Origin: an uncultured bacterium
GTDB taxonomy: Bacteria; Desulfobacterota_D; UBA1144
DNA: 64,000 nt
NCBI GenBank assembly: GCA_913050325.1
Contig: CAJWZP010000002.1
Location: 66,180-130,179 of the forward strand
Reading direction: 5' to 3'
The notes beneath the pieces are model-generated. The model was given only the letters and a program-made list of their open reading frames with translations, had not been told where the DNA came from and searched no databases. Position 1 is the first letter of the stretch. Every line of letters starts with the position of its first letter. Below are positions 3,287 to 64,000 of the stretch, piece after piece. The translations under genes were made by a program, and so were the position numbers.

Positions 3287-3801
3287 TGTTAAGTAAGGAA
3301 AATAAAAAAGATATAGTTTTAAATTATTCTAAAGAGCTCTCTGACTCACCTTCTTTTCTTTTGATTAATTACGCAGGTTCTAAAGTTAAAGAGTTTGAGA
3401 GTTTAAGAAAAGCTTTTAATAAAATTAACACTAAAATTTCTGTTGTTAAAAATACTTTACTTCAAAAAGCAACAGAAAATACAGATTTTAAAGAGCATTT
3501 CTCTTCATTAAAAGGTGAAACAGCTATAGCACTTTTAAACGAAAATTATGTAGAAGCTGCTAAATCTTTCATGGATATTAAAAAAGAAAGCCCTGTGTTT
3601 GAAATAAAGTTTGGCTATATTGATGGAAATGTTATAACAGTAAGTGAATTAGAGAAAATATCAAAGTTGCCATCAAAAGAAGTTTTAATTAGCCAATTCT
3701 TATCTGTCTTGAATCAGCCTATAGCTAAATTCGCATATGCGGCGAAATCAATACCCTCAAGTTTAATAAATGTATTAAATAACTTGAAAGATAAAAAATA
3801 A
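3286..3801 (+). CDS. rplJ: 50S ribosomal protein L10
   Basis: 171 aa; position between rplA and rplL; L10-like N-terminal region. Confidence 0.9.
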   Translation: MLSKENKKDIVLNYSKELSDSPSFLLINYAGSKVKEFESLRKAFNKINTKISVVKNTLLQKATENTDFKEHFSSLKGETAIALLNENYVEAAKSFMDIKKESPVFEIKFGYIDGNVITVSELEKISKLPSKEVLISQFLSVLNQPIAKFAYAAKSIPSSLINVLNNLKDKK

Positions 3802-3837
3802 CCATATATAATACGAGTTCAATATTCGGAGGAAATT

Positions 3838-4224
3838 ATGCCTGAAGTTTCAAGAGAAGACGTTATAAGTTATCTAGAAAATGCAAATTTACTGGAAATT
3901 TCTGAATTAGTTAAGGACATTGAAGAAAAATTTGGTGTCCAAGCGGCTGCACCTGTTGCTGTTGCTGCAGCTCCAGCTGGTTCAGCACCTGCGGAAGGTT
4001 CTGCTGAAGAAAAAACAGAGTTTGATGTAACTCTTAGCGATGCTGGTGGCGAGAAAATTAAAGTTATCAAGATAGTGAGAGAAGTCACTGCACTTGGGCT
4101 AAAAGAAGCTAAAGAGCTTGTTGAATCTGCCCCTAAGCCCCTTAAACAAGGTGTTAAAAAGGAAGAAGCAGAAGAAATCAAGAAAAAACTAGAAGATGTT
4201 GGCGCTAAAGTAGAGTTAGCTTAG
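3838..4224 (+). CDS. rplL: 50S ribosomal protein L7/L12
   Basis: 128 aa with an Ala-rich hinge ([24 protein letters not shown]) and a conserved C-terminal domain ([55 protein letters not shown]). Confidence 0.95.
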
Positions 4225-4260
4225 TTTTAATTAGTTATCATAAGTCCAAGAGGTGAATTT

Positions 4261-8421: not shown

Positions 8422-8439
8422 TATTTTGGAGGAAAGTTT

Positions 8440-11400
8440 ATGTTAGATATGGGAGTGCTTTTTGATAAGCCAAAAAATCCATCAGATTTTAAATCTATAA
8501 AAATTAGTATTGCGTCACCGGAAGAAATAAAAGAATGGTCTTATGGTGAAATCAAAAAACCAGAGACAATCAATTATAGAACATTTAAGCCTGAAAAATA
8601 CGGCCTTTTTTGTGCAAAAATATTTGGGCCAGTTAAGGATTTTGAGTGTTTATGTGGAAAATATAAAAGATTAAAACATAGAAATCATACTTGTGAAAAG
8701 TGCGGCGTTGAAGTTATTTCAAGTAAAGTTAGAAGATTCAGAATGGGACACATTGAATTATGCTCACCTGTAGCTCATATTTGGTTTCTAAAAAGTGTTC
8801 CTAGCAGAATTGGTGCTTTACTAGACATGACATTAAAAGATTTGGAAAAAGTTTTATATTTTGAATCATATGTAATTACAGATCCTGGTGATACTGGTCT
8901 TAAAGTTGGGCAAGTGATTTCAGAAGACGGATATAGAAAATTAATAGATGATAACTTTTTCTTACTAGTTGGTATGGGAGCTGAAACTATTCGTACCATG
9001 TTGGAAGAGATAGACCTAGAGGCTTTATCTGTTGAATTAAAACAAGATTTAAGATCAACATCTTCACCTTTGAAAAAAGTTAAGTTATCAAAGAGACTTA
9101 GAATAGTTGAAGCTTTTAGAAATTCAGGAAATAAGCCAGAATGGATGATTTTAAAAAGATTGCCTGTATTACCACCAGACTTAAGACCTTTAGTACCATT
9201 AGATGGTGGGAGATTTGCAACTTCAGACTTAAATGATCTTTATAGAAGAGTTATTAATAGAAATAATAGACTTAAAAAACTTATGGAATTAGGCGCACCT
9301 GATATAATTGTTAGAAATGAGAAAAGAATGCTTCAAGAATCGGTTGATGCATTATTTGAGAATGGTAGAAGAGGTAGACCAGTTCTTGGCCATAACCACA
9401 GACCTCTGAAAAGTTTAAGTGATATAATAAAGGGTAAACAAGGTAGGTTTAGACAAAATCTCTTGGGAAAGAGGGTCGATTATTCCGGTAGGTCCGTAAT
9501 TGTTGTTGGACCCCAATTAAAACTACATCAATGTGGTTTGCCTAAAAAAATGGCTTTAGAACTTTTTAGACCATTTATTTATCAAAAATTAGAATTGTGG
9601 GGCCATGCTGCTACAATAAAAATTGCTAAAAATTTAGTTGAGCAACAAGCTCCAATAGTATGGGATGCTTTAGACGATGTTATTAAAGAACACCCAGTTA
9701 TGTTGAACAGAGCGCCTACATTACATAGGTTAAGTGTTCAAGCTTTCGAGCCTGTTCTTGTCGAAGATAAAGCAATTCAACTTCACCCATTAGTTTGCCC
9801 AGCTTTTAATGCTGATTTTGATGGCGATCAAATGGCTGTTCATGTTCCTTTATCGGTTGAAGCACAAACAGAATGTAGGACATTAATAATGTCAACAAAC
9901 AATATTTTATCTCCTGCACATGGTAAACCAATAATTTTACCATCTCAGGATATTGTTCTAGGAATTTACTACATAAGTAGAGAGGTTCCCGGAGTCAAAG
10001 GTGAAGGTAAATCTTTTTCAAGTATCGATGAGTTAAGAAGTGCGTTTGATCTTGGAAATGTTCATATTCATGCAAAAATCAAAGTTGATATAAATGGAAC
10101 TGTTGAAAATACGACAGTTGGACGTGCTTTAATTTTTGAGGTTATGCCCAAAGAGGTACCTTTCAATCTTATTAATAAGTTGATGACAAAAAAAGCTATT
10201 GAAGAATTAATAGATTCAACTTTTAGAATCTCAGGTGGTAAGAGTACAGTTTTACTAGCAGATAGATTGAGGACTCTTGGATTTCAACATTCTACTACAT
10301 CTGGCATTTCAGTATCAATCGCTGATATGACTATTCCAGAAGAAAAAAACAACTTAATTAAAGTAGCGGAAGAAGAAGTTAATAAAATAAAAGATCAATA
10401 TTTGCAGGGCTTGATAACAGAGGGTGAAAGGTATAATAAGGTAATCGATGTATGGGCCAGAACAGGTGATGATATCGCAACATATCTTATGGATAGTATT
10501 GCATCATCAGATCTTTCTGATAAAGATTCTAAAGATGAAAAATCCCCGAGTAAAAATCCTATTTTTATGATGGTTGAATCTGGAGCAAGAGGTAGTCAAT
10601 CTCAAGTGAGACAATTAGCCGGAATGAGAGGCCTGATGGCAAAACCATCTGGAGAAATTATAGAAACTCCAATAACTTCAAATTTTCGTGAGGGCTTAAG
10701 TGTGCTTCAATACTTTATTTCAACTCATGGTGCAAGGAAAGGCTTGGCAGACACTGCTTTAAAAACAGCGAATGCAGGATATTTAACCAGAAGATTAGTT
10801 GATGTTGCACAAGATGTTATGATTTCTGAATATGATTGTGGTACAAAAGAAGGTATTGAAATTAGTCAATTAGTAGAAGGCGGGGAAGTAGTATCTAGTG
10901 TTGGAACCAGAGCTTTAGGTAGAGTAGTGGCCGAAGATGTTAATGATCCATTAACTGGTGAGAAAATTTTGTCTAGAAATCAAGAAGTTACAGAGTCAAT
11001 TGCTAAAGTTATTGATGATCTTCCGGGTTCTCAAAGAATTAAAATAAGGTCCTGTTTAACATGTGAGTCGGAAACAGGTGTTTGTGCTCTTTGCTATGGT
11101 AGAAATCTTGCTAGTGGAGAACTTGTAAACATTGGTGAGGCTGTTGGAATCATAGCTGCTCAATCAATTGGTGAACCTGGTACTCAGTTAACAATGAGAA
11201 CTTTCCATATTGGTGGGGTTGCTAAAGTTGAGCAATCTAGACATGATGCAAAAAATGACGGAAAAATTAAATTTGTAGATCTTAATTATGTTAAATCTGG
11301 TGACTCGAATATTTGTACAAGCAAAACCGCTGAATTAGTAGTTGAGGATTTGAATACATCACTGGAATTAGAGCGTTATCCACTTACAATTGGAGCTAAA

Positions 11401-24637: not shown

Positions 24638-25180
24638 ATGCCAGTATATGAATTTGAATGTAGAGAATGTATGTCTAGTTACAATAAGGCTATTGATAAA
24701 CTCGTCAAAAATCTTAATAAAAAATATGCCGCAGATTTATACAAGAAAAATAAAAATTTTAAATATATAGAATTATTAAATCCTAAGACAGATAAAACAA
24801 TTTTTTCTGTCGGTAAAGAAGGAAACAAAGGTATTAGAAGATTTAGATATAAGTTAGATGAAAAAAAGTTTCTATATCTTGAAATAATTGATTTTAAATT
24901 TAGCGAACTTTTTTTTGAAGGTGATAAAGTTGAAGACATTGAATGCCCTAACAATAAAAAGTGTAAAGATATACATAGAGTTTTTTCCGCTTTTAAAGCT
25001 ATATTTGAAAAAAGAGGAGGAGCTAAAGATAGAGCTCCTAAACCTGGAGACCCTTTAAGTTGGCACAAAGATTACAAAGTTATGAAAGATGAAGAGCAAG
25101 CTTCTAATTGGGTTGGACAAGACCATTTAAATCAATATTTTGGTAATTCTCAACATGATGGTTCTTATGGATCAGATTAA
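24638..25180 (+). CDS. FmdB-like zinc-ribbon protein with a ~90-aa insertion between the two Cys knuckles (paralog A)
   Basis: 180 aa. The N-terminus MPVYEFECRECMS matches the FmdB-family start (MPxYEYxCxxC). The second knuckle is CPNNKKC, followed by RVFSAFKAIF..G (compare FmdB CPxCGxx.RLIS..F.F). Has a disordered Gly/Asp/Ser-rich tail. Confidence 0.6.
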   Translation: MPVYEFECRECMSSYNKAIDKLVKNLNKKYAADLYKKNKNFKYIELLNPKTDKTIFSVGKEGNKGIRRFRYKLDEKKFLYLEIIDFKFSELFFEGDKVEDIECPNNKKCKDIHRVFSAFKAIFEKRGGAKDRAPKPGDPLSWHKDYKVMKDEEQASNWVGQDHLNQYFGNSQHDGSYGSD

Positions 25181-25191: not shown

Positions 25192-25734
25192 ATGCCATTA
25201 TATGAATTTGAATGCGTACCATTAAGAAAAAATATTTTAGATTCAATAGTTTCTATTGAAAAAAAACCAACTAAGAAAACAATCGAATCAATTGTAAAAA
25301 AGTATTCAAATATAAATTTAATAATACTTGTAGACCTTGATAAAGAAAAAGAAATTGCAAGATTTGGAGAGGCTATGGATTCCGATATTGATATTGATCT
25401 TTATGTAAATGATGGAAAAATAATGGCCTTATATTCCGTAACTAATTTTAGATTTTCTGAGCTTGTTATGAGTGAAGAAGATGAAAAAAATATTAAATGT
25501 CCATGTTGTAATAAAAAACAGAAAGTTGAAAGAGTTATTTCTTCATTTTCTTACACTAGTGACTTATCAACAAACCCACCTAAGCCACCTGGTGTTAAAG
25601 ATTTACCTAAAGAAATTCAGGGAAAATTTGCTACTACAGAGTACGTTGAAGAGAAAGATAAGCCAGCGAATATCAAAAGAGACAATAGATATAAGCATCA
25701 ATATCAAGATAAATCCAAAACAAAAATACTTTAA
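25192..25734 (+). CDS. FmdB-like split zinc-ribbon protein, paralog B (first knuckle degenerate)
   Basis: 180 aa. Starts MPLYEFECVPL (one Cys only). Shares F(K/R)FSEL, CPxxxKKxK..RVxSxF and PKP blocks with the upstream paralog. GGAG SD 8 nt upstream. Confidence 0.6.
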   Translation: MPLYEFECVPLRKNILDSIVSIEKKPTKKTIESIVKKYSNINLIILVDLDKEKEIARFGEAMDSDIDIDLYVNDGKIMALYSVTNFRFSELVMSEEDEKNIKCPCCNKKQKVERVISSFSYTSDLSTNPPKPPGVKDLPKEIQGKFATTEYVEEKDKPANIKRDNRYKHQYQDKSKTKIL

Positions 25735-31435: not shown

Positions 31436-32194
31436 ATGTCAAAGTATGTAAATTACTTTTTACTTTCCGCAATTATTGCTTGCATGCCGCTAGTATCATT
31501 CGCTGGAACAAATTTAGCCCCTAATGATCCTGTTGGAATTTCTTTCTGGATTATTTCAGTCGCAATGGTAGCCGCTACTGCTTTCTTCTTCCTAGAGTCT
31601 CTAAGAGTTCAAGGTAAGTTTAGAACATCATTAGTAGTTGGTGGTCTTATTTGTTTGGTTGCAGGCGTACACTATTTCTATATGAGAGAAGTGTGGGCTT
31701 CTACAGGTTCATCTCCAACTGTATTCAGATACGTTGACTGGATTGTAACCGTTCCACTTCAAATGGTTGAATTCTATCTCATATTAGCTGCTGTTACAGC
31801 TGTATCACTTGGTGTCTTCTGGAGACTTCTAATCGGTACTGTTGTTATGGTTGTTGCAGGTTATTTAGGCGAAGCTGGCTTCATTGATACAACAATTGGT
31901 TTTGTTGTAGGAATGGGTGGTTGGGCTTATATCCTGTATGAGATCTTCTCAGGCGAAGCAAGTGCTAGTGCTTCTAAAGCTGCACCTGCTGTTCAATCCG
32001 CATTTAATACAATGAAATGGATTGTAACCATTGGCTGGGCTATCTATCCTTTAGGTTATTTCTTAGGATATATGACCGGTGGTGGTGCTGATGCAGATAC
32101 TCTAAATATAGTTTATAACGTTGCAGATTTTATAAATAAAATTGGTTTTTGTTTAGCAATATGGGCTGCTGCTACAACACAAGCTGATGCTTAA
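31436..32194 (+). CDS. proteorhodopsin (light-driven proton pump), blue-tuned variant
   Basis: 252 aa with a signal peptide plus 7 TM helices. Has the PR-specific His (GVHYFYMR), proton acceptor Asp and donor Glu in RYVDWIVTVPLQMVEFYLIL, and the Schiff-base Lys in ADFINKIGF. The spectral-tuning position is Gln (PLQMVEF). Confidence 0.93.
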   Translation: MSKYVNYFLLSAIIACMPLVSFAGTNLAPNDPVGISFWIISVAMVAATAFFFLESLRVQGKFRTSLVVGGLICLVAGVHYFYMREVWASTGSSPTVFRYVDWIVTVPLQMVEFYLILAAVTAVSLGVFWRLLIGTVVMVVAGYLGEAGFIDTTIGFVVGMGGWAYILYEIFSGEASASASKAAPAVQSAFNTMKWIVTIGWAIYPLGYFLGYMTGGGADADTLNIVYNVADFINKIGFCLAIWAAATTQADA

Positions 32195-32204
32195 AAAAAT
32201 TAAA

Positions 32205-32235
32205 GGGTTTGTATCAATGATATAAACCCTTTTTT
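32205..32235 (+). terminator. rho-independent terminator after the proteorhodopsin gene
   Basis: 11-bp stem GGGTTTGTATC / GATATAAACCC (one G-U pair) with loop AAT, followed by TTTTTT at 32230-32235. Confidence 0.7.
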
Positions 32236-32252
32236 ACCTTATAATTTTAAAA

Positions 32253-33740
32253 ATGAAAATTAATAAAACTTTAGTAGTAGGTGGAGGTTTTGGGGGTATT
32301 GCTGCAGCTTTAAGAATGAAAGCTTTGGGTCATGATGTAACAATCATTGATAGACTATCAAAGTTAGGTGGAAGAGCTCAGGTCATAGACAGGAATGGAT
32401 ATAAATATGATACAGGCCCAACAGTTATAACTGCACCTTTTTTATTTAAAGAATTATTTAATCTTTTTGATGAAAATATTGAAGATTATTTAGATTTTAA
32501 ACCTTTAGAACCATGGTATAGATTTTACTTTCATGATGGTTCAAGCTTCGATTATTCATCATCAATCAATAAAACAAAAGAGGAAATATCTAAATATTCC
32601 AAGAGCGATTCTGAGGGATATGATCGTCTATTAGAAGAATCTAAAAAAATATTTGAGATTGGATTTACAAAATTATCGGACCAGCCATTTTTATCCTTTT
32701 GGACAATGATTAAGCAAGTTCCATCACTATTAAAGTTAAAAAGTTATTTAAGCGTATATGATATCGTTTCAAAATATATTAAAAATTCAAAAATTAGATC
32801 TGCTTTTTCAATCCATCCTTTACTAGTAGGTGGTAATCCATATACAACAACATCAATTTACTCATTGATTCATTATTTAGAAAGAAAATGGGGAGTATTT
32901 TTTTGTATGGGAGGAACGGGAAAATTAGTTGAGGAACTAACAAATTTATTAAATAGAGTAGGTGTAAGAATTTGTTTGAATGAGGATATCAAATCAGTAG
33001 AACATAAAAATTCTATTGCTTACAAAGCAATAACATCGAATGGAAAAGAATATTTTTTTGATAATATAATTTTCAATGGCGATCCTCCCACTTTCTACTC
33101 TGAAATCCTAAAACCGAAAAAAAGAAATCTTATAAACCCGATATTACCTGATAGCCTAATGACTTATTCCATGGGTTTATTTGTTTTGTTTTTTGGTACA
33201 AATAATCAATATAAGGATATAGCTCATCATACTATTTGGTTATCGAAAAGATTTAAGGGTCTTTTAAATGATATTTTTAAAGAAAAAGACTTGCCAGATG
33301 ATTTTTCACTTTATCTTCATAGGCCAACTGCAACTGATTCAACTTTTGCGCCAGAAGGTTGTGATAGCTATTATGTTTTATGCCCTGTACCAAACTTAAG
33401 ATCAAGCATAAATTGGAAAGTAGAAGGAGATAATTTAAAAAATAATATTATTAATGAATTAGAAAGAACCATAATGCCAAATTTAAAATCAAACATTAAA
33501 GATTTATCTTATATGACTCCTATAGATTTTAAAAATGATTATAGATCAATGCATGGAGCAGGCTTTTCAATAGCACCTATATTTTATCAATCAGCCTGGT
33601 TTAGATATCATAATCAAGATTCTAAAATTAAAAATATTTATTTTTCTGCAGCTGGCGCTCACCCTGGAGCTGGTATTCCAGGTGTTTTATCATCTGCAAA
33701 AGTAGTAGAAAATATTATAAGTAGAAATAAAAATGCTTAA
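32253..33740 (+). CDS. crtI: phytoene desaturase
   Basis: 495 aa with an N-terminal FAD-binding site (VVGGGFGGIAAALRMKALGHDVTIID) and the CrtI-family C-terminus. Confidence 0.9.
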   Translation: MKINKTLVVGGGFGGIAAALRMKALGHDVTIIDRLSKLGGRAQVIDRNGYKYDTGPTVITAPFLFKELFNLFDENIEDYLDFKPLEPWYRFYFHDGSSFDYSSSINKTKEEISKYSKSDSEGYDRLLEESKKIFEIGFTKLSDQPFLSFWTMIKQVPSLLKLKSYLSVYDIVSKYIKNSKIRSAFSIHPLLVGGNPYTTTSIYSLIHYLERKWGVFFCMGGTGKLVEELTNLLNRVGVRICLNEDIKSVEHKNSIAYKAITSNGKEYFFDNIIFNGDPPTFYSEILKPKKRNLINPILPDSLMTYSMGLFVLFFGTNNQYKDIAHHTIWLSKRFKGLLNDIFKEKDLPDDFSLYLHRPTATDSTFAPEGCDSYYVLCPVPNLRSSINWKVEGDNLKNNIINELERTIMPNLKSNIKDLSYMTPIDFKNDYRSMHGAGFSIAPIFYQSAWFRYHNQDSKIKNIYFSAAGAHPGAGIPGVLSSAKVVENIISRNKNA

Positions 33741-34602
33741 TGAAAAAATTGAAAAATTTAAAAATAATGGAAAAAGTTTTTATTGGGCTAGTAGGATTTT
33801 AAATAGAAATAAAAACGATAAAATATATAATTTGTATTTTATTTTAAGAGAATTAGATGATATCGCTGATAATCAAAATAATGAAAATGAATTTTTTAAA
33901 AAACTTTATGATTTTTTTGATATGAGTAAAAATAATGAATTGCCTTACAGATTAGAAAAACATAAAGATTTTTTTCTATATATTAAGAATGATTCATTAA
34001 TGAATAAGAATTTTAAAGATTTTATCACTGGTTTAATATTTGATCAGAAGGATAATGTAATAATTGACTCCCAGGATGAATTGTTAAATTATTGTTATAG
34101 AGTTGCAGGAACAATAGGTGTCATGATGTGTCCAATTTTAAATGTAAAAAATGAGCATGCAACTATACCTGCTACTAATCTCGGTATAGCAATGCAATTG
34201 ACCAATATTGCTAGAGATGTCTATGAAGATGCATTAAGTAACAGAAGATATTTACCTTCATCTTGGACAAACGGCATTGAACCTAAATTAATAATTGGTA
34301 AGTCTGATTGTATTGAATCAGTTGCCTATTTGTCAGTTAAAGATGGAATAAAAAAAACAATAGAATTAGCAGAAAAATATTATGAAGATGCAAAAAAAGG
34401 ATATTCCTATTTACCACTTAGGTCTAGATTGTGTATCGCAGTTGCAGCAAATATTTATAGAGAGATTGGGAAAAAAATTAAAAAAGAAAATTATAATTGG
34501 TCATCTTATAGGCACTTTGTAAAAAATTATGAAAAGTTGTACATAACTCTTAAGTCTATAATTTCTGAATTTTATTTAATTTTTAAAGAGAAAATACAAT
34601 GA
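33733..34602 (+). CDS. crtB: phytoene synthase
   Basis: 289 aa, squalene/phytoene synthase family (YWASRIL...LRELDDIAD; Asp-rich motifs). Overlaps crtI by 8 nt. Confidence 0.88.
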   Translation: MLNEKIEKFKNNGKSFYWASRILNRNKNDKIYNLYFILRELDDIADNQNNENEFFKKLYDFFDMSKNNELPYRLEKHKDFFLYIKNDSLMNKNFKDFITGLIFDQKDNVIIDSQDELLNYCYRVAGTIGVMMCPILNVKNEHATIPATNLGIAMQLTNIARDVYEDALSNRRYLPSSWTNGIEPKLIIGKSDCIESVAYLSVKDGIKKTIELAEKYYEDAKKGYSYLPLRSRLCIAVAANIYREIGKKIKKENYNWSSYRHFVKNYEKLYITLKSIISEFYLIFKEKIQ

Positions 34603-35702
34603 GTTCAAGTAAAACAATTTCTATCATTGGGGGAGGTTGTGCAGGATATAGTCTTTTAAATAAATTAAAAAATGTAAGTAATATTGAAATTGATTTTTTC
34701 ATCGGAAAGAATCAAGGAATAAATAATTTCTGGGGATATTGGGAATATGATAAAGATATTCCAGATAATATTTTGAGTGGCAAATGGAATAAGTGGAAAA
34801 TTTCAACTCAAGATGGTGAAAAATTTTTTGAATCCTCTAGTCATCCATATTGTGTAACTACAAGACATAATTGGATTTCATATTGTAAGCAGAATACTAA
34901 TAAAAAAAATATAAGAATATTAAAAGAGGATATAATGGAAATTAATAATAAAATTTATAATAAAAATAATGATGAAATTATTTCTGATTTTATTTTTGAT
35001 TCTAGATATACAAATAAATCTAAAAATATTTTCTTACAGCATTTTAAAGGTTTTTTAATTAAAACTGAAACTGATTGTTTTGATGATGAAGTCTTAACTT
35101 TAATGGATTTCAGATGTGATCAATCTAAAGGTATGCAGTTTGTATATGTTTTACCATTTACAAAAAAAATTGCATTGATTGAGCCAACGATTTATTCGTA
35201 CAACATTGAAGACGAAATCTATTATAAAAAAACTTTAGAATCATATCTTTATGATATATATAAAATAAAAAAATATAATATTATTAAGACTGAAAAAGGA
35301 TCAATTCCATTGGAACACAATAATATTAAAAAAGGACCTTATTTTAATATTGGTATCAATGGTAATGTTAATCGAAAATCATCTGGATATACATTCACTT
35401 TTATTCAAAAACAATCAATTTTAATAAAAAATTTCTTCTTGAATATAAGTAATGATTTGTCATTAAAAGTGCAGTCAAATTTTTTTAATTTTTTAGATGA
35501 AATTTTTCTAGATGTTATTAAAAGAAAACCCAGCATTGGACCTTTAATTTTTTATTCTTTCGGAAAGTCTTTTAATGGTAATGAGATGTCAGATTTTATG
35601 AATAACAGAATTAATTTTATTCCTTTTATGAAAATGTTATTTAACTTACCATTTAAGGAATTTATTAAATCTTTCATCAGGTGTTTATTTAATTATGGAT
35701 AG
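34599..35702 (+). CDS. crtY: lycopene beta-cyclase (CrtY type)
   Basis: 367 aa with an N-terminal dinucleotide-binding site (SIIGGGCAGYSL) and CrtY-family architecture. Overlaps crtB by 4 nt. Confidence 0.8.
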   Translation: MSSSKTISIIGGGCAGYSLLNKLKNVSNIEIDFFIGKNQGINNFWGYWEYDKDIPDNILSGKWNKWKISTQDGEKFFESSSHPYCVTTRHNWISYCKQNTNKKNIRILKEDIMEINNKIYNKNNDEIISDFIFDSRYTNKSKNIFLQHFKGFLIKTETDCFDDEVLTLMDFRCDQSKGMQFVYVLPFTKKIALIEPTIYSYNIEDEIYYKKTLESYLYDIYKIKKYNIIKTEKGSIPLEHNNIKKGPYFNIGINGNVNRKSSGYTFTFIQKQSILIKNFFLNISNDLSLKVQSNFFNFLDEIFLDVIKRKPSIGPLIFYSFGKSFNGNEMSDFMNNRINFIPFMKMLFNLPFKEFIKSFIRCLFNYG

Positions 35703-36492
35703 CATCACATTATATTCTCTGATACTTATAATTCTAGTAGGCCTTCCACATGGAGCCCTTGATGGTGCAGTTAGTTTGTGTCTTGAAATAAATAATTCGT
35801 TAAGAAATATAATTATTTTTATAAGTGTTTATATCTTAATAGCTTTTATAGTAGTTATTTTATGGTTGAACTTTTCCGAACTGGCTTTGATATTTTTTCT
35901 AATAATTAGCATCATGCATTTTGGTATTGGTGATTTAGAATGGGAAAGTGGTTTTTCAAAATATATTTTGGGATTCTTTATTGGCGGGTTGGTAGTTGTT
36001 GGTACCTCTCTATTAAATAGAGATGATGTTAATAATATCTTCTTATACTTATCTGAACGTACAGACATGGTTTGGTATTTTATTGAATACTCTTCATATT
36101 TATGGATTCTATCGGTACCATATTTCATCAATAAAATTGATAAATTTTCTACTCAATTTTTAATAAAGATTTTTTTTATTTTTATATTTGTAGTTTTTTT
36201 ACCACCCTTATTAGCATTTTCTTTCTATTTTTGCTTTATACATACTATTAATCATTTTGGAAGAATAGTTCCTCAACTTAAAAACAAAATGACAAATAAG
36301 AAGATTTTTTATACTTTTTTACTTTTTACTCTATCTAGTTGGCTAATAGGATTTATTGTATATGAATTATTTAAGGATTCTTTTGATTTTGTTGAACTTA
36401 CGTATAAGATTCTTTTTATCGGATTGGCAGCTTTAACGGTACCACATATGATTTTAATTGATTTTTATTTTAGGCCCCTTAAGAAAGTATGA
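35695..36492 (+). CDS. blh: beta-carotene 15,15'-dioxygenase (Brp/Blh family), the retinal-forming enzyme
   Basis: 265 aa polytopic membrane protein with the Blh signature N-terminus (LILIILVGLPHGALDG) and conserved His residues. Immediately downstream of crtY with an 8-nt overlap. Confidence 0.82.
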   Translation: MDSITLYSLILIILVGLPHGALDGAVSLCLEINNSLRNIIIFISVYILIAFIVVILWLNFSELALIFFLIISIMHFGIGDLEWESGFSKYILGFFIGGLVVVGTSLLNRDDVNNIFLYLSERTDMVWYFIEYSSYLWILSVPYFINKIDKFSTQFLIKIFFIFIFVVFLPPLLAFSFYFCFIHTINHFGRIVPQLKNKMTNKKIFYTFLLFTLSSWLIGFIVYELFKDSFDFVELTYKILFIGLAALTVPHMILIDFYFRPLKKV

Positions 36493-56675: not shown

Positions 56676-57689
56676 ATGGATGCAATAAAAACCACTGATA
56701 CAAATAATATTGGAATTATTCTTGATCCAAATTCTTTTCAAAATATATCTGATATCGTATTGAAAGCAGAGAGTTATAATTTTCATTCAGCATGGGTGAC
56801 AGAACTTTATAGGTCTTCGTTTGAGCAACTTGTTCATATATCCTCAATCACAAATAAAATTAAAATTGGTAGTGCTGTTACGTTAGGTTTTGTAAGAAGC
56901 CCTTTGTCAACTATGATATCAGCAATGGATATAGATGAAATTTCAAAAGGTAGACTAATTTTTGGCTTAGGATCTGGTGCAATTAATACAAATAGAAAAT
57001 GGCATGGTATTGAAAATTTTGATAGACCTTCAGAGAGAATAAGCTCACTTCTTAAATCTTTAAAGATTATTGAAAAATCTTTAAATAACTCAAAGGATAT
57101 TTTGTATAATGATGAATTTATAAATATTGATATAAAAGCTTTTAGGAGGCCATTTAAGCCCTTTAGAGAAGAAATTCCAATATTTATAGCAGGTATAGGT
57201 CCAAAGATGACCAATATAGCTCTAAATCAATCTGATGGATATATAGGACATGTAGTATGTTCTAAAGACTATATAAACAACAATATAATACCCTTGAAGA
57301 AGAAAAAATTTTCAACTCTATCATCAATCGTGTTATGTGCAATTAATAAAAATAAATTGCAAGCCATTGAAGATTGTAAGGGGACGATAGCATTTTATTC
57401 AACAGTTAAAGCTTATTCAGAACCCTTTAGACAGTTAGGTTTTGAGGAAAATATAATTTCTATTAGAAAACATTTTTTTGAAGGCAATATCGATGGAATG
57501 ATATCAAACGTAAGTAATGAAATGGTAGAAAAGTTTGCTTTGGTTGGTAATCGTGATGAAGTAAAGGAAGGCATGTTAGAATTTAAAAATTTTATAGATT
57601 TACCGATATTGACTGCTCCTCATTATTATTTAAATCACGAAAAATTAGAAATATACCAGAATGAAATTCTAGAAACTTTTAAATTTTAG
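56676..57689 (+). CDS. luciferase-like (LLM class) flavin-dependent oxidoreductase
   Basis: 337 aa with a TIM-barrel LLM pattern (GIILDPNSF...; IGSAVTLGFVRSP; LIFGLGSG). Substrate unknown. Confidence 0.7.
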   Translation: MDAIKTTDTNNIGIILDPNSFQNISDIVLKAESYNFHSAWVTELYRSSFEQLVHISSITNKIKIGSAVTLGFVRSPLSTMISAMDIDEISKGRLIFGLGSGAINTNRKWHGIENFDRPSERISSLLKSLKIIEKSLNNSKDILYNDEFINIDIKAFRRPFKPFREEIPIFIAGIGPKMTNIALNQSDGYIGHVVCSKDYINNNIIPLKKKKFSTLSSIVLCAINKNKLQAIEDCKGTIAFYSTVKAYSEPFRQLGFEENIISIRKHFFEGNIDGMISNVSNEMVEKFALVGNRDEVKEGMLEFKNFIDLPILTAPHYYLNHEKLEIYQNEILETFKF

Positions 57690-58341
57690 CAGCTGTATAA
57701 ATGGTAACAATTCCTAAATTAAAAGATTTTATTTCCAAAACTTTAAAATTATTTTTAGAAAGTAATTCGTTAAATTCTTTAGGTGAATAGAATTTGTTAA
57801 TTGATGATGAAAGATAGAAATATTCTTTAAACTTCCCAAACAAAAGCCCAACTAGAGGTATAAAAAGGAAAAGATATATGTTTGTAATTAATTTCATAAT
57901 AGGATTTTCATTTCTTGAAAATTCCATAATGTACAAATATTTATTATCTTTTAAAACTCTATGTATTTCTTTTAGAGATTTTTCTATAGATTTTGTATTC
58001 CTAATACCAAATGAAATTGTTACATAGTCAAACATTTTATTTTCAAACGGTATATTCTCAGCATAACCTTTCAGGAAGTTAATATTTTGAGATTTTTCTT
58101 TAGCAATTTTAAGCATATTCTGTGATGGATCTAATCCATAGCATTCTGATACTGGATATTTCTTTTTTATTAATCTTATTATGTCTCCAGTTCCAGTAGC
58201 AATATCTAATATTTTCCCATTCATATTTGATTTGGTAACAAAATCTTTTTTCCATTTTTTATGTTTTCCGAGACTAATTATATTATTTATTCTGTCATAG
58301 ACCTTAGCTATTGAGTTAAAAGTATTTTTTGTATCTGGCAT
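57679..58341 (-). CDS. ubiE: ubiquinone/menaquinone biosynthesis C-methyltransferase UbiE family
   Basis: 220 aa with the UbiE N-terminal motif (FNSIAKVYDRINNIISLGKHKKWKK) and SAM-binding motif I (ILDIATGTGD). Confidence 0.85.
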   Translation of the reverse strand: MPDTKNTFNSIAKVYDRINNIISLGKHKKWKKDFVTKSNMNGKILDIATGTGDIIRLIKKKYPVSECYGLDPSQNMLKIAKEKSQNINFLKGYAENIPFENKMFDYVTISFGIRNTKSIEKSLKEIHRVLKDNKYLYIMEFSRNENPIMKLITNIYLFLFIPLVGLLFGKFKEYFYLSSSINKFYSPKEFNELLSKNNFKVLEIKSFNLGIVTIYTAAKI

Positions 58342-59210
58342 TATAGGTCCTTGATTATTTTATTGGCTCTTTTGATATCTCCTGATGTCATTAAATGTAT
58401 ACCGTCTAAATTACTTTTATATTCTTTTATTAATCTTGATGAATGCTCTATTGAATATTGTTCCATTTCATAATCATCTAATTTTTTTAATTTATTTAGA
58501 TGTTTGCTATCTATAGGTATACCAGCAATTTTATTAACTATATTTTTAAGTATTTTTTTGTTGGTTATTGGCAATATTCCACATAAAATTTTATAATTTT
58601 TTTTTCTAGATATTTGTGAAATAAAATCAAGATTTTCATGAGAATAAACTGGTTGAGTTATAAAAACATTTGAACCTTTTTTCAATCTATTGTTTATTAT
58701 CTTTTTTATTTCTCCAAAATCTTTATTAATATCAATAGTAGAAATGATATCAAAGTCTAATTTTTTTTGTATTTTATTCCCTGAATAATCATTTCCATTT
58801 CTGATTTTATCTAAAATTTTAATTAATTCATTGGTTCCAACTTCATATACCTCTTTAGATTTAAGGGAATCTCCATTTTTAATTTTATCTCCTTTAACAA
58901 TTAAGATTTTTTTTATATTCATTGAAATACATCCCAAAATTTCACTTTGAAGAGATAGTGTATTTTTGTCACGTGTAGAAAAATTAATAATTAATTTCTT
59001 AGGGTTGATTCCTTCCAATATCAATTTATGGGCGATACTTATAGGACTTATTCTAAGATTTGCTAAAGGGCAGCAAGTAATATCTAGGAAGTCAAAACTT
59101 TTATGGTATCTAACAATTTTTTTTATATAATTTGGATTTATATAATGCTTTGGCGGAACAATCTCAAAAGATGTTTTGAATGTGTTTTTGTTTAAGTTAG
59201 AATTTATCAT
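58341..59210 (-). CDS. metF: methylenetetrahydrofolate reductase family protein
   Basis: 289 aa with the MTHFR N-terminal signature SFEIVPPK and a TIM-barrel pattern. Its stop is shared with the ubiE start (1-nt overlap). Confidence 0.75.
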   Translation of the reverse strand: MINSNLNKNTFKTSFEIVPPKHYINPNYIKKIVRYHKSFDFLDITCCPLANLRISPISIAHKLILEGINPKKLIINFSTRDKNTLSLQSEILGCISMNIKKILIVKGDKIKNGDSLKSKEVYEVGTNELIKILDKIRNGNDYSGNKIQKKLDFDIISTIDINKDFGEIKKIINNRLKKGSNVFITQPVYSHENLDFISQISRKKNYKILCGILPITNKKILKNIVNKIAGIPIDSKHLNKLKKLDDYEMEQYSIEHSSRLIKEYKSNLDGIHLMTSGDIKRANKIIKDL

Positions 59211-59213
59211 TCT

Positions 59214-60143
59214 ATGCGCTATCTAATTATATTTATTTTTTTATTATTTTCTTTAAAGTCATATGGTATCACGAAAGTATATAATTTAATAGATGAAAAA
59301 CTCACAATTCATACAACGAATCCTTTAACTAAAGATCAAAAAAATAAAATAGAAGATATTTTAGATAATATAACAGCAGTTCTTGATGTAACGGATTCAG
59401 ATTCTTTTGTATCAAGATTTAATAATTTAGAAAAAAATTCTGAGGTTTCAGCTCCTGATGTATTCGTTGATGCATATAAAGTATTAAATGATTATAATAA
59501 AATAACTAAAGGTAAATTCGATCCGACAGCTTTTACACTTTTGTCTAAAAGTCAAAAAGTCAAAAAGTTAAATTACTATTTAAAATCTGGTGTTCATTCA
59601 AGATGTACTTCGTTAAAAAATATCAAAATTAAAATTAACAATGTTTTCTCTAAAAAAGAAAAATGTACTAAAATTAGTTTTAATTCTTTGATATATGGAA
59701 AAGTAGTTGATGAAATACAAATATTTTTTGATTCAGAAAAAATTAACGCCTATGCAATAATTTTTAATAATGTTGTTGCGAAAAAAAATTTTTCTTTTAG
59801 TGAAATTAGTACATTGAAACTTTCAGATTATATAAAGGAAAAGGTTAATTTTGATTTAATAAATAATTTTGGAATCTATGAACTTTCTGATAATTTATAT
59901 ATTCATAACATAAATATGAAAGATGAAAATTTAATATTAAATGATGAAATTATTATTCTCGTTTCTACAAGCTCAAACTCTAACAACAATATCCTAGCAA
60001 ATACCTTAAATCTTATGGATTTTGATAAAATAAAAAATTTAAACAATTCAGAAGTAAAGATTCCAATATTTATTTTATATAAAATCGGGGACATGTATAA
60101 TTTTTCATATACAGATAATTTTAAAAGATTTCTATCTGATTAG
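59214..60143 (+). CDS. hypothetical exported protein, Asn/Ile/Lys-rich (signal peptide)
   Basis: 309 aa with an N-terminal signal peptide (MRYLIIFIFLLFSLKSYG). No confident family assignment. Its start is 3 nt from the divergent metF start. Confidence 0.6.
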   Translation: MRYLIIFIFLLFSLKSYGITKVYNLIDEKLTIHTTNPLTKDQKNKIEDILDNITAVLDVTDSDSFVSRFNNLEKNSEVSAPDVFVDAYKVLNDYNKITKGKFDPTAFTLLSKSQKVKKLNYYLKSGVHSRCTSLKNIKIKINNVFSKKEKCTKISFNSLIYGKVVDEIQIFFDSEKINAYAIIFNNVVAKKNFSFSEISTLKLSDYIKEKVNFDLINNFGIYELSDNLYIHNINMKDENLILNDEIIILVSTSSNSNNNILANTLNLMDFDKIKNLNNSEVKIPIFILYKIGDMYNFSYTDNFKRFLSD

Positions 60144-61482
60144 AATTCGAAAAATTATTAACATATCTATCTATATCAAATTTTCTCTTTAATCCATTTT
60201 CATTCATATATCTAATTTTTCCAAAAATACTTCTTTCTTTCCAACCTCTATCATGTAAACCAAAACACCATAAAATACCAACATAACTATTAGGATTTCT
60301 ACCATCCAACTGATATTTATTATTTAGATAAAGAGCTATTTTAATACCTTCTTGAAAATTTTTAGTCCATTCTAATATTTTTTTTCCCCAGTACATCCTC
60401 ATATATCCATGAATATATCCATATTTTAATAATTGAATTTGAGCTGAATTCCAATATAAATCATGAGTTTTTGCAAATTCAAAATCATGTAAGTCATATA
60501 CGAATTCTCTTTTGTCTTCTTGATGACTAATTAAGGATTCAATGGCCCAATTTGGTAGACCTTTATGATTGTTATAGTTTTTATTATGATAAGTATAATT
60601 GTAGGCAAGCTCTCTTCTTATTAGAATTTGCTCAACAAATGAATTGGTGAAATTAAAATTTATTTTCATTAAATCATATATAATTTCAAATATCGAAATA
60701 TGACCATAGTGAAGATATTTACTCATACATGAATTTTTTATATTTTCTGGATTATTAGATTTTTCATCATAATTAAAAATGTCATTATCAATATAATTTT
60801 TAAAAGTATTTACTGCGTTATCATGACCACCTTGTATGTCTTGATTAATAAGATATTTATCTTTTGGTAAATCGCTTAGAATTTTAAAGATATCTATTGT
60901 ATATTCGTTAGGATCATCCAATGTTGTAATTCCATTTAATTCATTTTCAATTTTAAAGGTTTGATCAATCAAATCATCTACTAACTTGTAATACTTTCTC
61001 CTAAACGTAGCTGCTGAATATTCCTCTTTGTTAGAAACTAGTTTTGTGGGTAAATATAAATTATCAATTGAATAAATATTGCAATCAATATCTTTTAATT
61101 CACTTTTTAAATATTTTCTGGATCTTTCAGTATAAGGTTCATCAAGAACTAAAGTGTCACAATCACTTAAAATTAATGAACATAAATTTGTCCCATACTC
61201 ATAAAAGTTAATATTATGATTAAAATTATTAAACTTTAGTAATACATCTTTTAAACCTTCAAACATAAATTTCAAATGTCTCGATATACAATCGTATTGG
61301 ATTTTGTTATAAATAAAAAAGATTTTAAGTGGTAGTTTTTTTTCTTTTGCAATCCTAGCAGCAAATCTGAGAGAAAAATTATTTTCTATTCTTTGGTTTG
61401 AAGTCATCCAATAAGAAATAAATTTCCCCGTTTTATCTGCTTTTCTTAATATAGTGCTTCTATCTTTTTCGAATTGAATCAT
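60121..61482 (-). CDS. phr: class II CPD (deoxyribodipyrimidine) photolyase
   Basis: 453 aa. The C-terminal FAD-binding region matches class II photolyase signatures (GYIHGYMRMYWGKKILEWT...LDGRNPNSYVGILWCFGLHDRGWKERSIFGKIRYMN). Confidence 0.88.
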   Translation of the reverse strand: MIQFEKDRSTILRKADKTGKFISYWMTSNQRIENNFSLRFAARIAKEKKLPLKIFFIYNKIQYDCISRHLKFMFEGLKDVLLKFNNFNHNINFYEYGTNLCSLILSDCDTLVLDEPYTERSRKYLKSELKDIDCNIYSIDNLYLPTKLVSNKEEYSAATFRRKYYKLVDDLIDQTFKIENELNGITTLDDPNEYTIDIFKILSDLPKDKYLINQDIQGGHDNAVNTFKNYIDNDIFNYDEKSNNPENIKNSCMSKYLHYGHISIFEIIYDLMKINFNFTNSFVEQILIRRELAYNYTYHNKNYNNHKGLPNWAIESLISHQEDKREFVYDLHDFEFAKTHDLYWNSAQIQLLKYGYIHGYMRMYWGKKILEWTKNFQEGIKIALYLNNKYQLDGRNPNSYVGILWCFGLHDRGWKERSIFGKIRYMNENGLKRKFDIDRYVNNFSNSNQIEIF

Positions 61483-61838
61483 TTTTTAAATCTATATATC
61501 CAAAATAAAACTGAAAAAAGAAAAAAAGAAATGGGGATTATATATAATATAATACCAAACCCTGATGTCGGAGGTTTAGCCAATATTGTATCACCATAAA
61601 TTCCTACAAAATACTGTAAAATTTCTTCTTTTTTTTGACCTTGATCCAGTTTCTTTTTAACAACTTCTCTCATTGATATAGCAAGACCCGAGTTAGATTC
61701 TGCAACTGTTTGACCCTGACAAACAGGACACATAAGTTCATTAGAGATATCATAGAGATCATTATCTTTTCCTATAGAATTAGGTACGAATATAAATAGT
61801 AAAAGAATTACAATTTTAATTATTTTTAGAGTATTCAT
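61479..61838 (-). CDS. ccmH: cytochrome c-type biogenesis protein CcmH/CycL
   Basis: 119 aa with a signal peptide, the CcmH motif LMCPVCQGQTVAESNSGLAISMR (LRCxxCQ), and a C-terminal TM anchor. Confidence 0.85.
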   Translation of the reverse strand: MNTLKIIKIVILLLFIFVPNSIGKDNDLYDISNELMCPVCQGQTVAESNSGLAISMREVVKKKLDQGQKKEEILQYFVGIYGDTILAKPPTSGFGIILYIIPISFFLFSVLFWIYRFKK

Positions 61839-62325
61839 ATGTTTTTTTTAAGCCTATATTGAGAAAGTCTAAGCTGATTTTACCTATATATTTATAAATT
61901 ATTTTATTATCTTTCATAAAAAAAGTTTCGGGAACGCCTGATACTCCAAATTCAATGGGTAAAGTTTTTGTTTCGTCATAATAATTTTTATAAATCATAT
62001 AATTATCATCCATAAATTTCTTTGCTTCATTAATTTCATCAAATATATTTATCCCGATAATATAATTTATATTATTTTGCTCTGTAAAACTATTTAAATA
62101 CTTCACTTCGTCAATGCATGGTCTGCACCATGATGCCCAAAAATTAATTATGTAAATACCTTCAAAGGATTTTAAGTCTTTTGTTTGTTCATTATCATTT
62201 ATAATTTTATTTAATTTATAATCTTGAGTAATTTCTTTATCAATTAAAATAAAAGGTGATGAATTTATATTTGTATTATTACAAGAAATTAAAATTAGAA
62301 ATAATAATATTATTTTAATTTTCAT
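61816..62325 (-). CDS. ccmG: thiol:disulfide interchange protein CcmG/DsbE
   Basis: 169 aa with a lipoprotein-like signal (LILISC), the thioredoxin active site WASWCRPC, and GVSGVPETFFMKDNKIIYKYIG (CcmG signature). Confidence 0.88.
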   Translation of the reverse strand: MKIKIILLFLILISCNNTNINSSPFILIDKEITQDYKLNKIINDNEQTKDLKSFEGIYIINFWASWCRPCIDEVKYLNSFTEQNNINYIIGINIFDEINEAKKFMDDNYMIYKNYYDETKTLPIEFGVSGVPETFFMKDNKIIYKYIGKISLDFLNIGLKKTYEYSKNN

Positions 62326-62761
62326 TACAACATTTATTACCCAACTTTGTATTAGTGGAAGGGTAATCTTTATACGCTTCGTCTAACAAGCTCCTTATTT
62401 CTTGCATAGTAAATTTATCTTTTATTAAATATTTAACTGTAAGAGCTACATCTATACAAATTGGACAAGAAACACTATGATTAGTTAAATAAATCGTATC
62501 ATTGTCTATTTTTTTAATAAAACAAGATTTATTACTTGTATGTTTAATTTTCTCACACCCACAATAACATGAAAAATTTTCTAATAATTTATAGTTTTTA
62601 ACTGCATACTCATATGCCTCTTTTGTATCTCCTTTCAATGTTTTCAAAAAAATTATAGAATTTTCTGAAAGAGTAGATGATATACATTGAGTATTTAAGA
62701 TAAAAATTGAAATAAAAATAAATAGAAATTTATTAAACATCAAAATTTTGACTTTCAACAC
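62315..62761 (-). CDS. hypothetical secreted Cys-rich protein (CYCGC motif) encoded between the malic enzyme gene and ccmG
   Basis: 148 aa with a signal peptide and 9 Cys, including FSCYCGCEKIKHT, SCF, SCPIC and a C-terminal KCC. Start 62761 or 62740. Overlaps ccmG by 11 nt. Confidence 0.55.
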   Translation of the reverse strand: MLKVKILMFNKFLFIFISIFILNTQCISSTLSENSIIFLKTLKGDTKEAYEYAVKNYKLLENFSCYCGCEKIKHTSNKSCFIKKIDNDTIYLTNHSVSCPICIDVALTVKYLIKDKFTMQEIRSLLDEAYKDYPSTNTKLGNKCCNEN

Positions 62762-64000
62762 CAGCCATTTTCTCTAATTTTGCCTTATATTCATCTAGAT
62801 TAATTTTTAACCTAGCAACTCCAGTTTCCATTGCAGTTTTTGCTACAGCATAAGATTCCCATACTAATACTCTTGGATCAAAAGGAGAGGGGACTATATA
62901 TTCTTTACCATATACAAGTTCATCTCTGTTATGTTTTTTTGCAATTTCCTCAGGAGCTCCCATTTTAGCAAGTTTAGCTAAAGCAATAGATGCGGCTACC
63001 TTCATTTCTTCATTTATTTCAGTTGCTGCTACATCTAAAGCACCTCTAAAAATGAAAGGAAAGCCTAATACATTATTAACCTGATTTGGATAATCAGTTC
63101 TACCTGTTGCCATAATAATGTCTTGTCTTGCTTCAAATGCATCTTTTGGTGATATTTCCGGATCTGGATTTGCCATAGCAAATACTATTGGATTGTCATT
63201 CATATCTAAAATCATTTCTTTTGAAACAACATTACCAATTGAAAGTCCGACAAATACATCAGAGCCCTTAAAAGTATCCTCTAATGTTCTACAATCTGTT
63301 TCAACAGCAAATTCTTCTTTTTGCTTATTTAAGTTTTCTCTACCTTTATAAATTACTCCTTTACTATCACACATTAATATATTGTTTGGATTCACACCTA
63401 AAGTTATAAATAATCTTGCACAAGAGATTGCCGATGCACCGGCACCATTTATATTAATTCTTATATCAGCCATTTTTTTATCAACTAGCTCACAAGCATT
63501 TACTAAACCAGCTGCTGATATAATAGCTGTTCCATGTTGATCATCATGAAAAACAGGAATGTTCATTTTCTCTTTTAATTCGTCTTCAATTCTAAAACAT
63601 TCAGGAGCTTTTATATCCTCTAAATTAATACCACCGAAAGTTGGTTCAAGAAGTTCAACCGTTCTAATAATTTCATCAACATCAGTAGTTTTAATTTCTA
63701 TGTCAAAAGCATCTACTTGTGCAAATCTTTTAAACAATACTGCTTTTCCTTCCATAACAGGTTTACTAGCTTCTGGACCTAAATCGCCTAAGCCCAAAAC
63801 TGCTGTTCCATTTGAAACAACTGCTACAAGATTTCCTTTGTTTGTATATTTGTATACATTTTGAACATCTTCATGGATTTCTTTACATGGTTCCGCAACC
63901 CATGGTGAGTAAGCTAGGGATAATTCATCCTGAGTCTCTGCAGGTTTAGTTACAGTGGTTTCAATTTTTCCTCTTGGCTCCTTCGAATGATAATTTAAAG
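62733..64000 (-). CDS. maeB: NAD(P)-dependent malic enzyme (short form, no PTA domain evident); 5' end beyond window edge
   Basis: The minus-strand frame is open from 64000. Contains ...LAYSPWVAEPCKEIHEDVQNVYKYTNKGNLVAVVSNGTAVLGLGDLGPEASKPVMEGKAVLFKRFAQVDAFDIEI... (malic enzyme NAD-binding signatures). The 'M' at 63797 in the ORF track is an internal TTG. Confidence 0.85.
   Translation of the reverse strand, partial: LNYHSKEPRGKIETTVTKPAETQDELSLAYSPWVAEPCKEIHEDVQNVYKYTNKGNLVAVVSNGTAVLGLGDLGPEASKPVMEGKAVLFKRFAQVDAFDIEIKTTDVDEIIRTVELLEPTFGGINLEDIKAPECFRIEDELKEKMNIPVFHDDQHGTAIISAAGLVNACELVDKKMADIRININGAGASAISCARLFITLGVNPNNILMCDSKGVIYKGRENLNKQKEEFAVETDCRTLEDTFKGSDVFVGLSIGNVVSKEMILDMNDNPIVFAMANPDPEISPKDAFEARQDIIMATGRTDYPNQVNNVLGFPFIFRGALDVAATEINEEMKVAASIALAKLAKMGAPEEIAKKHNRDELVYGKEYIVPSPFDPRVLVWESYAVAKTAMETGVARLKINLDEYKAKLEKMAGVESQNFDV

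Follow-up and report, generated by a model that had tools for sequence, protein, structure and literature searches.

The window analysed here is a 64,000-nucleotide stretch of contig CAJWZP010000002.1 (the term always means the whole stretch), and its end, positions 60121-64000, carries five consecutive minus-strand open reading frames. The five were confirmed both in the open reading frame listing and by direct reading of the minus strand. They encode a malic enzyme, a Cys-rich exported protein of the PCYCGC family, a CcmG-like thioredoxin, CcmH and a homologue of the class II cyclobutane pyrimidine dimer (CPD) photolyases. The host is an uncultured marine pelagic Dadabacterium with a proteorhodopsin-bearing genome of roughly 1 Mb and 30% GC.

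A seven-gene string reaching beyond the window

The genes of the unit, and the convergent gene that bounds it, are as follows.

62733..64000, minus strand: NADP-malic-enzyme-like gene, 5' end past the window (Pfam malic and Malic_M; 433 aa)
62315..62761, minus strand: exported Cys6His2 PCYCGC / CYCXC protein (PF13798; 148 aa from a GTG start)
61816..62325, minus strand: CcmG-like thioredoxin-fold lipoprotein, 169 aa (AhpC-TSA/Redoxin/Thioredoxin; WASWCRPC)
61479..61838, minus strand: CcmH, 119 aa (PF03918; LMCPVCQ)
60121..61482, minus strand: class II CPD photolyase homologue, 453 aa (TIGR00591 phr2), last gene of the string
59214..60143, plus strand: ApbE-family gene (PF02424), convergent, bounding the unit; position constant in all relatives

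The gene identities proposed in the initial annotation, including the WASWCRPC and LMCPVCQ motifs, agree with the Pfam and NCBIfam assignments, and the four overlaps that it listed are all present, with public gene calls concurring. The malic and PCYCGC genes overlap by 29 nt if the latter begins at its GTG, or by 8 nt from the ATG at 62740 (ATGTTTAA). The ATG start (141 aa) appears more likely, because homologues begin at that position. The following overlaps are 11 nt between PCYCGC and the CcmG-like gene (ATGAAAATTAA), 23 nt between the CcmG-like gene and ccmH, and 4 nt between ccmH and photolyase, where an ATGA lies on the ccmH stop codon. The photolyase 3' end in turn overlaps the 3' end of the convergent ApbE gene by 23 nt.

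An exact-protein look-up found the identical photolyase on 23 Tara/JGI marine contigs, on which independent gene calls give the same boundaries. Contig L001, which is 99.98% identical to the terminal 13,880 nt of the window, extends the string upstream. The malic gene, whose start lies 34 nt past the window end, is complete there (7449-8750) and is preceded by a 67-nt gap and then by a gene encoding CcdA (PF02683, 235 aa, both PC-motif cysteines present). Beyond CcdA lies a second thioredoxin-fold lipoprotein of 163 aa (WASWCQPC, ResA/TlpA-like, without the PET motif), separated from a divergent leucyl aminopeptidase gene by just 21 nt. The complete string runs through seven co-directional genes, with the five of the window at its 3' end, in the order TlpA/ResA-like thioredoxin lipoprotein, CcdA, malic enzyme, PCYCGC, CcmG-like thioredoxin, CcmH and class II photolyase. 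The initial annotation had ccmG and ccmH standing without ccmABCDEF. Neither ccmA-F nor ccsA/B was found in the window or in the 7.4 kb beyond it (about 71 kb together), but the two genes are no orphan pair, because CcdA and the second thioredoxin upstream place them in a thioreduction branch of the usual kind, leading from CcdA through CcmG to CcmH.

The junctions are too tight to house an intergenic promoter or terminator. The one true gap of the string separates ccdA from the malic gene and measures 61-83 nt across all relatives. No terminator-like site was found at the junctions; the sole hairpin lies inside the malic gene and is at chance level. An Rfam scan of the window returned five tRNAs only, with no riboswitch or leader near the unit. 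From this layout we infer that the seven genes are probably transcribed together.

Conservation of the string and the slot after ccmH

Loci of relatives were gathered from photolyase and CcmH homologues and checked with phmmer. Their gene orders (L numbers denote contigs) are given below.

Window and L001-L006: thioredoxin, CcdA, malic enzyme, PCYCGC, CcmG-like, CcmH, photolyase
L007 and L011: gene order identical to that of the window
L008, L176 and L175 (cut by contig ends): the part covered, malic enzyme, PCYCGC, CcmG-like, CcmH and photolyase, agrees with the window
L009, L010 and L091: CcdA, malic enzyme, PCYCGC, CcmG-like, CcmH, photolyase, unassigned 355-aa protein; L010 starts inside the malic gene
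L092: CcdA, malic enzyme, CcmG-like, CcmH, unassigned 365-aa protein; no PCYCGC or photolyase
L093: CcdA, malic enzyme, CcmG-like, CcmH, then directly the convergent ApbE gene; no PCYCGC or photolyase

The flanks are constant in every locus, with leucyl aminopeptidase on one side and the ApbE, MTHFR-like, ubiE, luciferase-like and rplQ-rpoA genes on the other. Identity to the window proteins is 83-90% for malic enzyme in all relatives, 55-72% for CcmH, 52-55% for photolyase and 43-51% for the CcmG-like protein, ranges which indicate that the compared loci belong to well-separated lineages. The arrangement is thus not peculiar to one strain, as it recurs in relatives whose photolyases have diverged to an identity of only 49-57%. 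Junctions are tight throughout, and an ATGA follows ccmH whether the next gene is photolyase or the unassigned protein (in L175 a 100-N scaffold gap spans the ccmH/photolyase junction).

The conserved core of the string consists of CcdA, malic enzyme, the CcmG-like thioredoxin and CcmH, whereas PCYCGC and photolyase are accessory. The 3' end of the operon after ccmH is a variable slot, and every photolyase of the clade that was examined occupies it. Two relatives without photolyase in the slot (L092 and L093) still retain the rest of the core operon. This distribution points to one old photolyase insertion with later loss, or to a gain after the basal split, and not to recent transfer. Recent horizontal acquisition of the photolyase was considered and rejected, given the lack of a compositional signal (GC at third codon positions 0.165 versus 0.15-0.19 in housekeeping genes) and the fact that all examined members of the clade carry the gene in this one slot.

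The placing of a photolyase beside cytochrome-maturation genes had been called unusual. The linkage is lineage-specific. A comparison with 79 further class II photolyase loci, drawn from diverse bacteria and archaea, showed no gene for CcmH, a CcmG-like thioredoxin, PCYCGC or malic enzyme within 10 kb of any of them. A literature search found no description of the specific seven-gene arrangement.

Two observations on these loci concern gene calling and the unassigned protein. On L093 an intact CcdA open reading frame (6398-7105, plus strand; phmmer score 241) is uncalled in the public annotation, which has a 102-aa opposite-strand open reading frame instead. The 355-365-aa protein is cytoplasmic and has no Pfam or NCBIfam match (L091 10715-11782 and L092 9378-10475; also on L009 and L010). 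Its 355- and 365-aa forms are 35% identical, and both use a 4-nt overlap.

The only close relative among the GTDB species genomes is the metagenome-assembled genome bacterium isolate SP78 (L011), which has the same seven-gene arrangement; the locus of one relative sits on a contig of 1,045,770 bp. SP78 is the genome TOBG-SP78 (GCA_002715585), listed as marine Dadabacteria of pelagic clade 1 (Graham & Tully, PMC8115339) with proteorhodopsin, an estimated genome size of 1.1 Mb and a coding density above 96% (PMC8115339). In the KEGG-Decoder row for TOBG-SP78 cytochrome c oxidase scores 0.75, with no bc1, cbb3 or bd oxidase; no terminal oxidase other than this one was detected in that genome (PMC8115339 supplements).

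The encoded proteins

The thioreduction module is textbook, and all of its components come from known families. CcmH scores 92.6 bits against PF03918 (gathering score 25) and consists of a signal peptide (MNTLKIIKIVILLLFIFVPNSIG), the LMCPVCQGQ motif and a C-terminal membrane anchor (GFGIILYIIPISFFLFSVLFWIY). In the CcmG-like protein a LISC lipobox, a WCRPC active site and GVSGVPETF can be read from the sequence; a WCxxC plus a GVxGxPETF cis-Pro motif is what we take to be the CcmG signature (E. coli DsbE, P. aeruginosa CcmG). Its best NCBIfam model is TIGR00385 dsbE, at 73.2 bits below the cut-off of 123.15, ahead of ResA, TlpA and StoA. The active site is kept in six orthologues and the PET motif is exact in five. 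In every relative examined, including the sediment contig L096, the CcmG-like gene is followed directly by an overlapping ccmH.

Reducing equivalents for apocytochrome thioreduction pass from DsbD or CcdA to CcmG, then to CcmH and the apocytochrome (review PMC3884852). The module resembles this System I branch of P. aeruginosa and E. coli (PMC3884852) in having a CcdA-type carrier, a WCxxC/GxxGxPET thioredoxin and an anchored CXXC CcmH, with ccmG directly followed by ccmH and the thioreduction genes set apart from the haem-handling ccm genes. It differs in that the CcmG-like protein is a lipoprotein or has a cleaved signal peptide in place of an N-terminal membrane anchor and scores below the dsbE cut-off, in that the string includes a second TlpA/ResA-like paralogue and PCYCGC, with malic enzyme and photolyase interleaved, and in that ccmABCDEF were not found within about 71 kb. 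Rhodobacter capsulatus likewise uses a branch running from DsbD or CcdA through CcmG/DsbE/HelX to CcmH/Ccl2, and in alphaproteobacteria, too, thioreduction genes lie apart from the haem-handling ccm genes. Proteins of the CcmH family work with CcmF in the CcmFH holocytochrome c synthase. The comparison with System II is mixed: the upstream genes include CcdA (PF02683) and a thioredoxin resembling ResA/TlpA, no CcsB or CcsA occurs in the same 71 kb, and CcmH is not part of System II.

The malic enzyme gives its best NCBIfam score to PRK12861, NADP-dependent malic enzyme (438 bits), over the N-terminal portion of that model only. Most likely it is a cytoplasmic enzyme carried as a passenger midway along the operon. 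One may speculate that it might have been retained because NADPH is the ultimate electron source for thioredoxin reductase and, through it, for CcdA; its position is equally explained by history.

The photolyase aligns with model positions 3-452 of 453 of TIGR00591 phr2 at 395.1 bits (cut-off 550.05) and, over residues 20-447, with the class II structures 8oet and 2xry in the Protein Data Bank (PDB) at E values of about 1e-79, with 3umv following at 2e-73. Residue numbers of the Methanosarcina mazei enzyme were carried over through the 2xry alignment. The class II Trp triad W360/W381/W388 and N403 correspond to W344/W365/W372 and N387 of the window protein, and the CPD-pocket residues M379/W421 correspond to M363/W405; all are invariant in an alignment of 18 sequences. 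A suspected loss of a substrate-pocket Trp (M. mazei W305) was rejected, as Arg stands there in 18 of the 18 aligned class II sequences. The protein is most likely a working, ordinary light-driven cyclobutane-dimer repair enzyme, judging from the retention of every class II catalytic residue checked. Compared with the class II CPD photolyases M. mazei Mm0852 (2XRY) and rice PhrII (3UMV), it shares full-length homology and the conserved triad, N403, M379 and W421 positions, but its identity to them is about 40%, its N-terminal (antenna) domain is divergent, and it falls below the phr2 cut-off. Its position at the end of a ccm-type operon likewise sets it apart from the 79 other class II loci. 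The earlier remark that such photolyases are comparatively uncommon in bacteria was overstated, since about 60 of the best 80 species-level matches are bacterial.

The PCYCGC protein scores 71.2 bits against PF13798 (threshold 25) and 62.1 bits against NF041379, CYCXC family (seleno)protein (cut-off 90). PF13798 is the 'OS_HP4' CYCXC family of the GOS data and has selenocysteine (UxxC) members (PMC9312934, PMC13188914), which implies redox-active chemistry for the family. An exhaustive HMMER search gave 574 family representatives, whereas a word-indexed search for PCYCGC homologues returned close relatives only. Across 30 diverse members Y43, C58, C60, C62, H67, C73, H88, C92 and C95 are invariant, and the six Cys and two His residues suggest metal ligation together with redox chemistry. 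Bacillales members are described as lipoproteins with a lipobox Cys (PMC13068155). The window protein has LNTQC, and relatives within the clade lack Cys at that position, so the lipobox Cys is not conserved; a signal peptide or N-terminal anchor seems more likely than a lipoprotein. Like the rest of the CYCXC family the protein is exported and keeps CYCGC plus the H, C, H and CxxC invariants, but the window clade has its own C-terminal CC motif besides the unconserved lipobox cysteine. An AlphaFold model (pLDDT 64.9), for which the underlying alignment was shallow, had no PDB match by Foldseek with an E value below 1.5.

The genomic context of the family was surveyed with a narrower family alignment, the broad one being too divergent. 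A metagenome scan gave 80 PCYCGC loci (L094-L173), of which 52 are non-redundant, and their neighbours were clustered and annotated with Pfam. A CuA-like cupredoxin (PF13473/PF00116) occurs at 27 of the 52 loci, usually as the next gene. Other neighbours are a Fer4_5 polytopic membrane protein (16 loci), DUF1573 (9), a P1B ATPase with HMA domains (7) and DUF2085 (4). Most of the PCYCGC genes lie in apparent copper operons, which combine a P1B ATPase, DUF2085, PCYCGC, a CuA-like cupredoxin, a Fer4_5 membrane protein, a further cupredoxin and DUF1573. By guilt by association the PF13798 family is copper-associated, and our literature search found no published description of this association. The window protein departs from the usual family context, in that a CcmG-like thioredoxin and CcmH lie downstream of it and not a cupredoxin, Fer4_5 protein, DUF1573 or P1B ATPase. 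PCYCGC followed by a thioredoxin and CcmH was found only in the window clade and in one sediment relative (L096/L097, 49-51% identity), the nearest non-pelagic relative. In the sediment locus (446-7397) genes for an RND pump and for a CusB-like membrane-fusion protein bearing a YtkA domain precede the triad, and no malic enzyme, CcdA or photolyase lies nearby.

The Bradyrhizobium TlpA/ScoI/PCuAC pathway matures the CuA centre of the aa3 oxidase. In that pathway a TlpA-like thioredoxin draws on CcdA or DsbD to maintain copper-site proteins with their cysteines in the reduced state, which is the likeness to the present string; the PCYCGC family shares the copper link in adjoining CuA-like cupredoxins and copper ATPases elsewhere, and the only reported terminal oxidase of the lineage is a cytochrome c oxidase. 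Unlike that pathway, the locus has no Sco or PCuAC homologue, and PCYCGC is an unrelated and structurally uncharacterised family. A role for PCYCGC in copper or CuA handling for an aa3 oxidase, dependent on the thiol relay, would be a reasonable if speculative proposal. PCYCGC is probably not a haem-handling factor.

A probable composite operon in a compacted genome

The window has about 30% GC and contains the rpoBC and ribosomal super-operons, and its coding fraction is about 97%. Co-directional neighbours overlap at 27 of 63 junctions, with a median gap of 1 nt, and even the unrelated genes rpoC and valS share one base. Three of the six convergent pairs also overlap. Their 3' overlaps (26 nt at 19841-21133/21108-22874, 11 nt at 56676-57689/57679-58341 and 23 nt at 59214-60143/60121-61482) leave no space for terminators there. 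With overlaps this common in the window, four successive ones are typical of this organism and tell little about function. The window also holds a complete proteorhodopsin cluster at 31436-36492 (plus strand), composed of rhodopsin (PF01036), a CrtI-like desaturase, phytoene synthase, lycopene cyclase and a Blh beta-carotene dioxygenase; rhodopsin together with retinal synthesis marks the organism as a surface photoheterotroph.

The explanation that we favour, with a probability of about 0.65, is a compaction-driven composite operon. Its core would be a CcdA to CcmG-like to CcmH relay for cytochrome c thioreduction, which probably serves PCYCGC and the maturation of a copper centre as well, and malic enzyme and photolyase would be passengers. 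Going by family membership, cytoplasmic thioredoxin would be the source of the reducing equivalents that CcdA moves through the membrane, the CcmG-like protein would hand them to CcmH, and CcmH would reduce the CXXCH cysteines of apocytochromes c prior to haem attachment. PCYCGC would probably be one more client or partner of this relay. One such task, a speculative assignment, would be the handling of copper or of a CuA centre for an aa3-type oxidase. Both the flow of electrons through the relay and the copper role of PCYCGC are points that we infer. Malic enzyme and photolyase would be transcribed within the same string, probably with translational coupling via ATGA-type junctions, and would ride there because intergenic space is all but absent from this genome. 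The photolyase would supply ordinary photorepair to surface-dwelling, proteorhodopsin-bearing lineages.

Several points weigh against this explanation. The haem-attachment partner of CcmH is putative, as no CcmF or other haem-handling Ccm protein is encoded within about 71 kb, and both the CcmG-like protein and the photolyase score under their NCBIfam cut-offs. Promoters within coding sequence are possible. A benefit of co-expression for the photolyase is also possible, given that the same slot and a coupling-type junction are found despite photolyase identities of 49-57%. Finally, in the few lineages sampled PCYCGC and photolyase are jointly present or jointly absent, a co-occurrence equally explained by shared ancestry.

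The initial annotation had offered two explanations for the arrangement, coordinated expression of light and oxidative-stress functions or genome compaction. In the first, the photolyase, and perhaps PCYCGC, would be co-expressed with the periplasmic thiol-redox genes as a functional regulon against light or photo-oxidative stress in surface water. We consider this unlikely. The host is indeed a surface photoheterotroph with proteorhodopsin, photolyase and PCYCGC do co-occur in the sampled lineages, and the arrangement with its ATGA or 1-nt overlap junction has been kept across lineages with divergent photolyases. However, photolyase and PCYCGC are absent from sister lineages that hold CcdA, malic enzyme, the CcmG-like protein and CcmH, the slot after ccmH is also taken by an unrelated protein, and the 79 other class II loci lack CcmH, thioredoxin or PCYCGC neighbours. 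Moreover, overlaps among unrelated genes are the norm in this genome and no regulator or operator is evident. These data favour compaction, as do the overlap frequency and the median gap of the window. It is quite improbable that the string is not one transcription unit and that promoters within upstream coding sequence drive photolyase and/or PCYCGC-ccmG-ccmH separately, with the overlaps reflecting lost spacer only. AT-rich coding DNA is rich in -10/-35-like hexamers, and the ccdA/malic gap could house a promoter that splits the string. Yet the 52 promoter-like sites found in 6.8 kb match the 52.2 expected from shuffling (in AT-rich DNA such a scan is uninformative), the junctions are free of terminator-like structures, and the ATGA and TAATG-type junctions, which are conserved, are of the kind usually seen with translational coupling.

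Another reading concerns the part of the string around PCYCGC. The triad of PCYCGC, CcmG-like protein and CcmH is conserved in pelagic Dadabacteria and in the sediment relative, and it might be an undescribed periplasmic module in which a thioredoxin and a CcmH-family reductase serve a Cys6His2 copper protein, maturing a CuA or haem-copper oxidase instead of or besides reducing apocytochrome c, possibly without CcmABCDEF. In the sediment relative the triad adjoins the CusB-like/RND pump genes. We hold the proposal to be doubtful. Least probable of all, and by a judgement that comes close to dismissal, is that the photolyase homologue is a cryptochrome-like or other flavoprotein acting with the redox module and not a repair enzyme. 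Its TIGR00591 score (395 versus 550) and its Pfam N-terminal domain score (23.2 versus a gathering score of 26.6) are both sub-threshold, and identity between the clade and any named photolyase reaches only about 40%. Against this, the alignment to solved class II CPD photolyases is full-length (E 1e-79), no variation is seen at the Trp triad, at the FAD-N5 Asn or at the Met and Trp of the CPD pocket, and the protein, which has no signal peptide, is cytoplasmic, in contrast to the exported redox proteins.

The composite operon that we favour would be an example of how streamlining assembles operons from unrelated functions, and it is a caution that overlap or adjacency is a poor guide to function in organisms such as SAR11 and marine Dadabacteria. 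Photolyase carriage varies among closely syntenic Dadabacteria and follows one operon-end slot, which bears on the light-driven niche partitioning reported for them. The understanding of cytochrome maturation and photorepair is unchanged by the locus. What is modestly new is that gene context ties PF13798 to copper systems and, within Dadabacteria, also to CcmG and CcmH. For this uncharacterised CYCXC family it is the first lead from context, and it points to a putative copper-associated, thiol-redox-dependent periplasmic protein.

Some further features of the window may be recorded. Genes for respiratory-chain and cofactor biogenesis are abundant at 56676-60143, where an ApbE flavin transferase with a signal peptide, a luciferase-like monooxygenase and an MTHFR-like protein fused head-to-tail with a UbiE/MenG methyltransferase (1-nt overlap) are encoded. 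OmpH/Skp and FabZ lie beyond the window start and fit a diderm envelope. A tRNA cluster (Thr-Tyr-Gly-Thr, then Trp) at 784-1390 on the plus strand stands ahead of secE-nusG-rplK with no tuf between; the E. coli thrU-tufB arrangement differs from it by its tuf copy. Tandem paralogues of 180 aa, both starting with MP(V/L)YEFEC, occupy 24638-25180 and 25192-25734 on the plus strand, and one of them has a sub-threshold zinc-ribbon match (PF09723). Such a tandem duplication is unusual here, as the genome is reported to have almost none.

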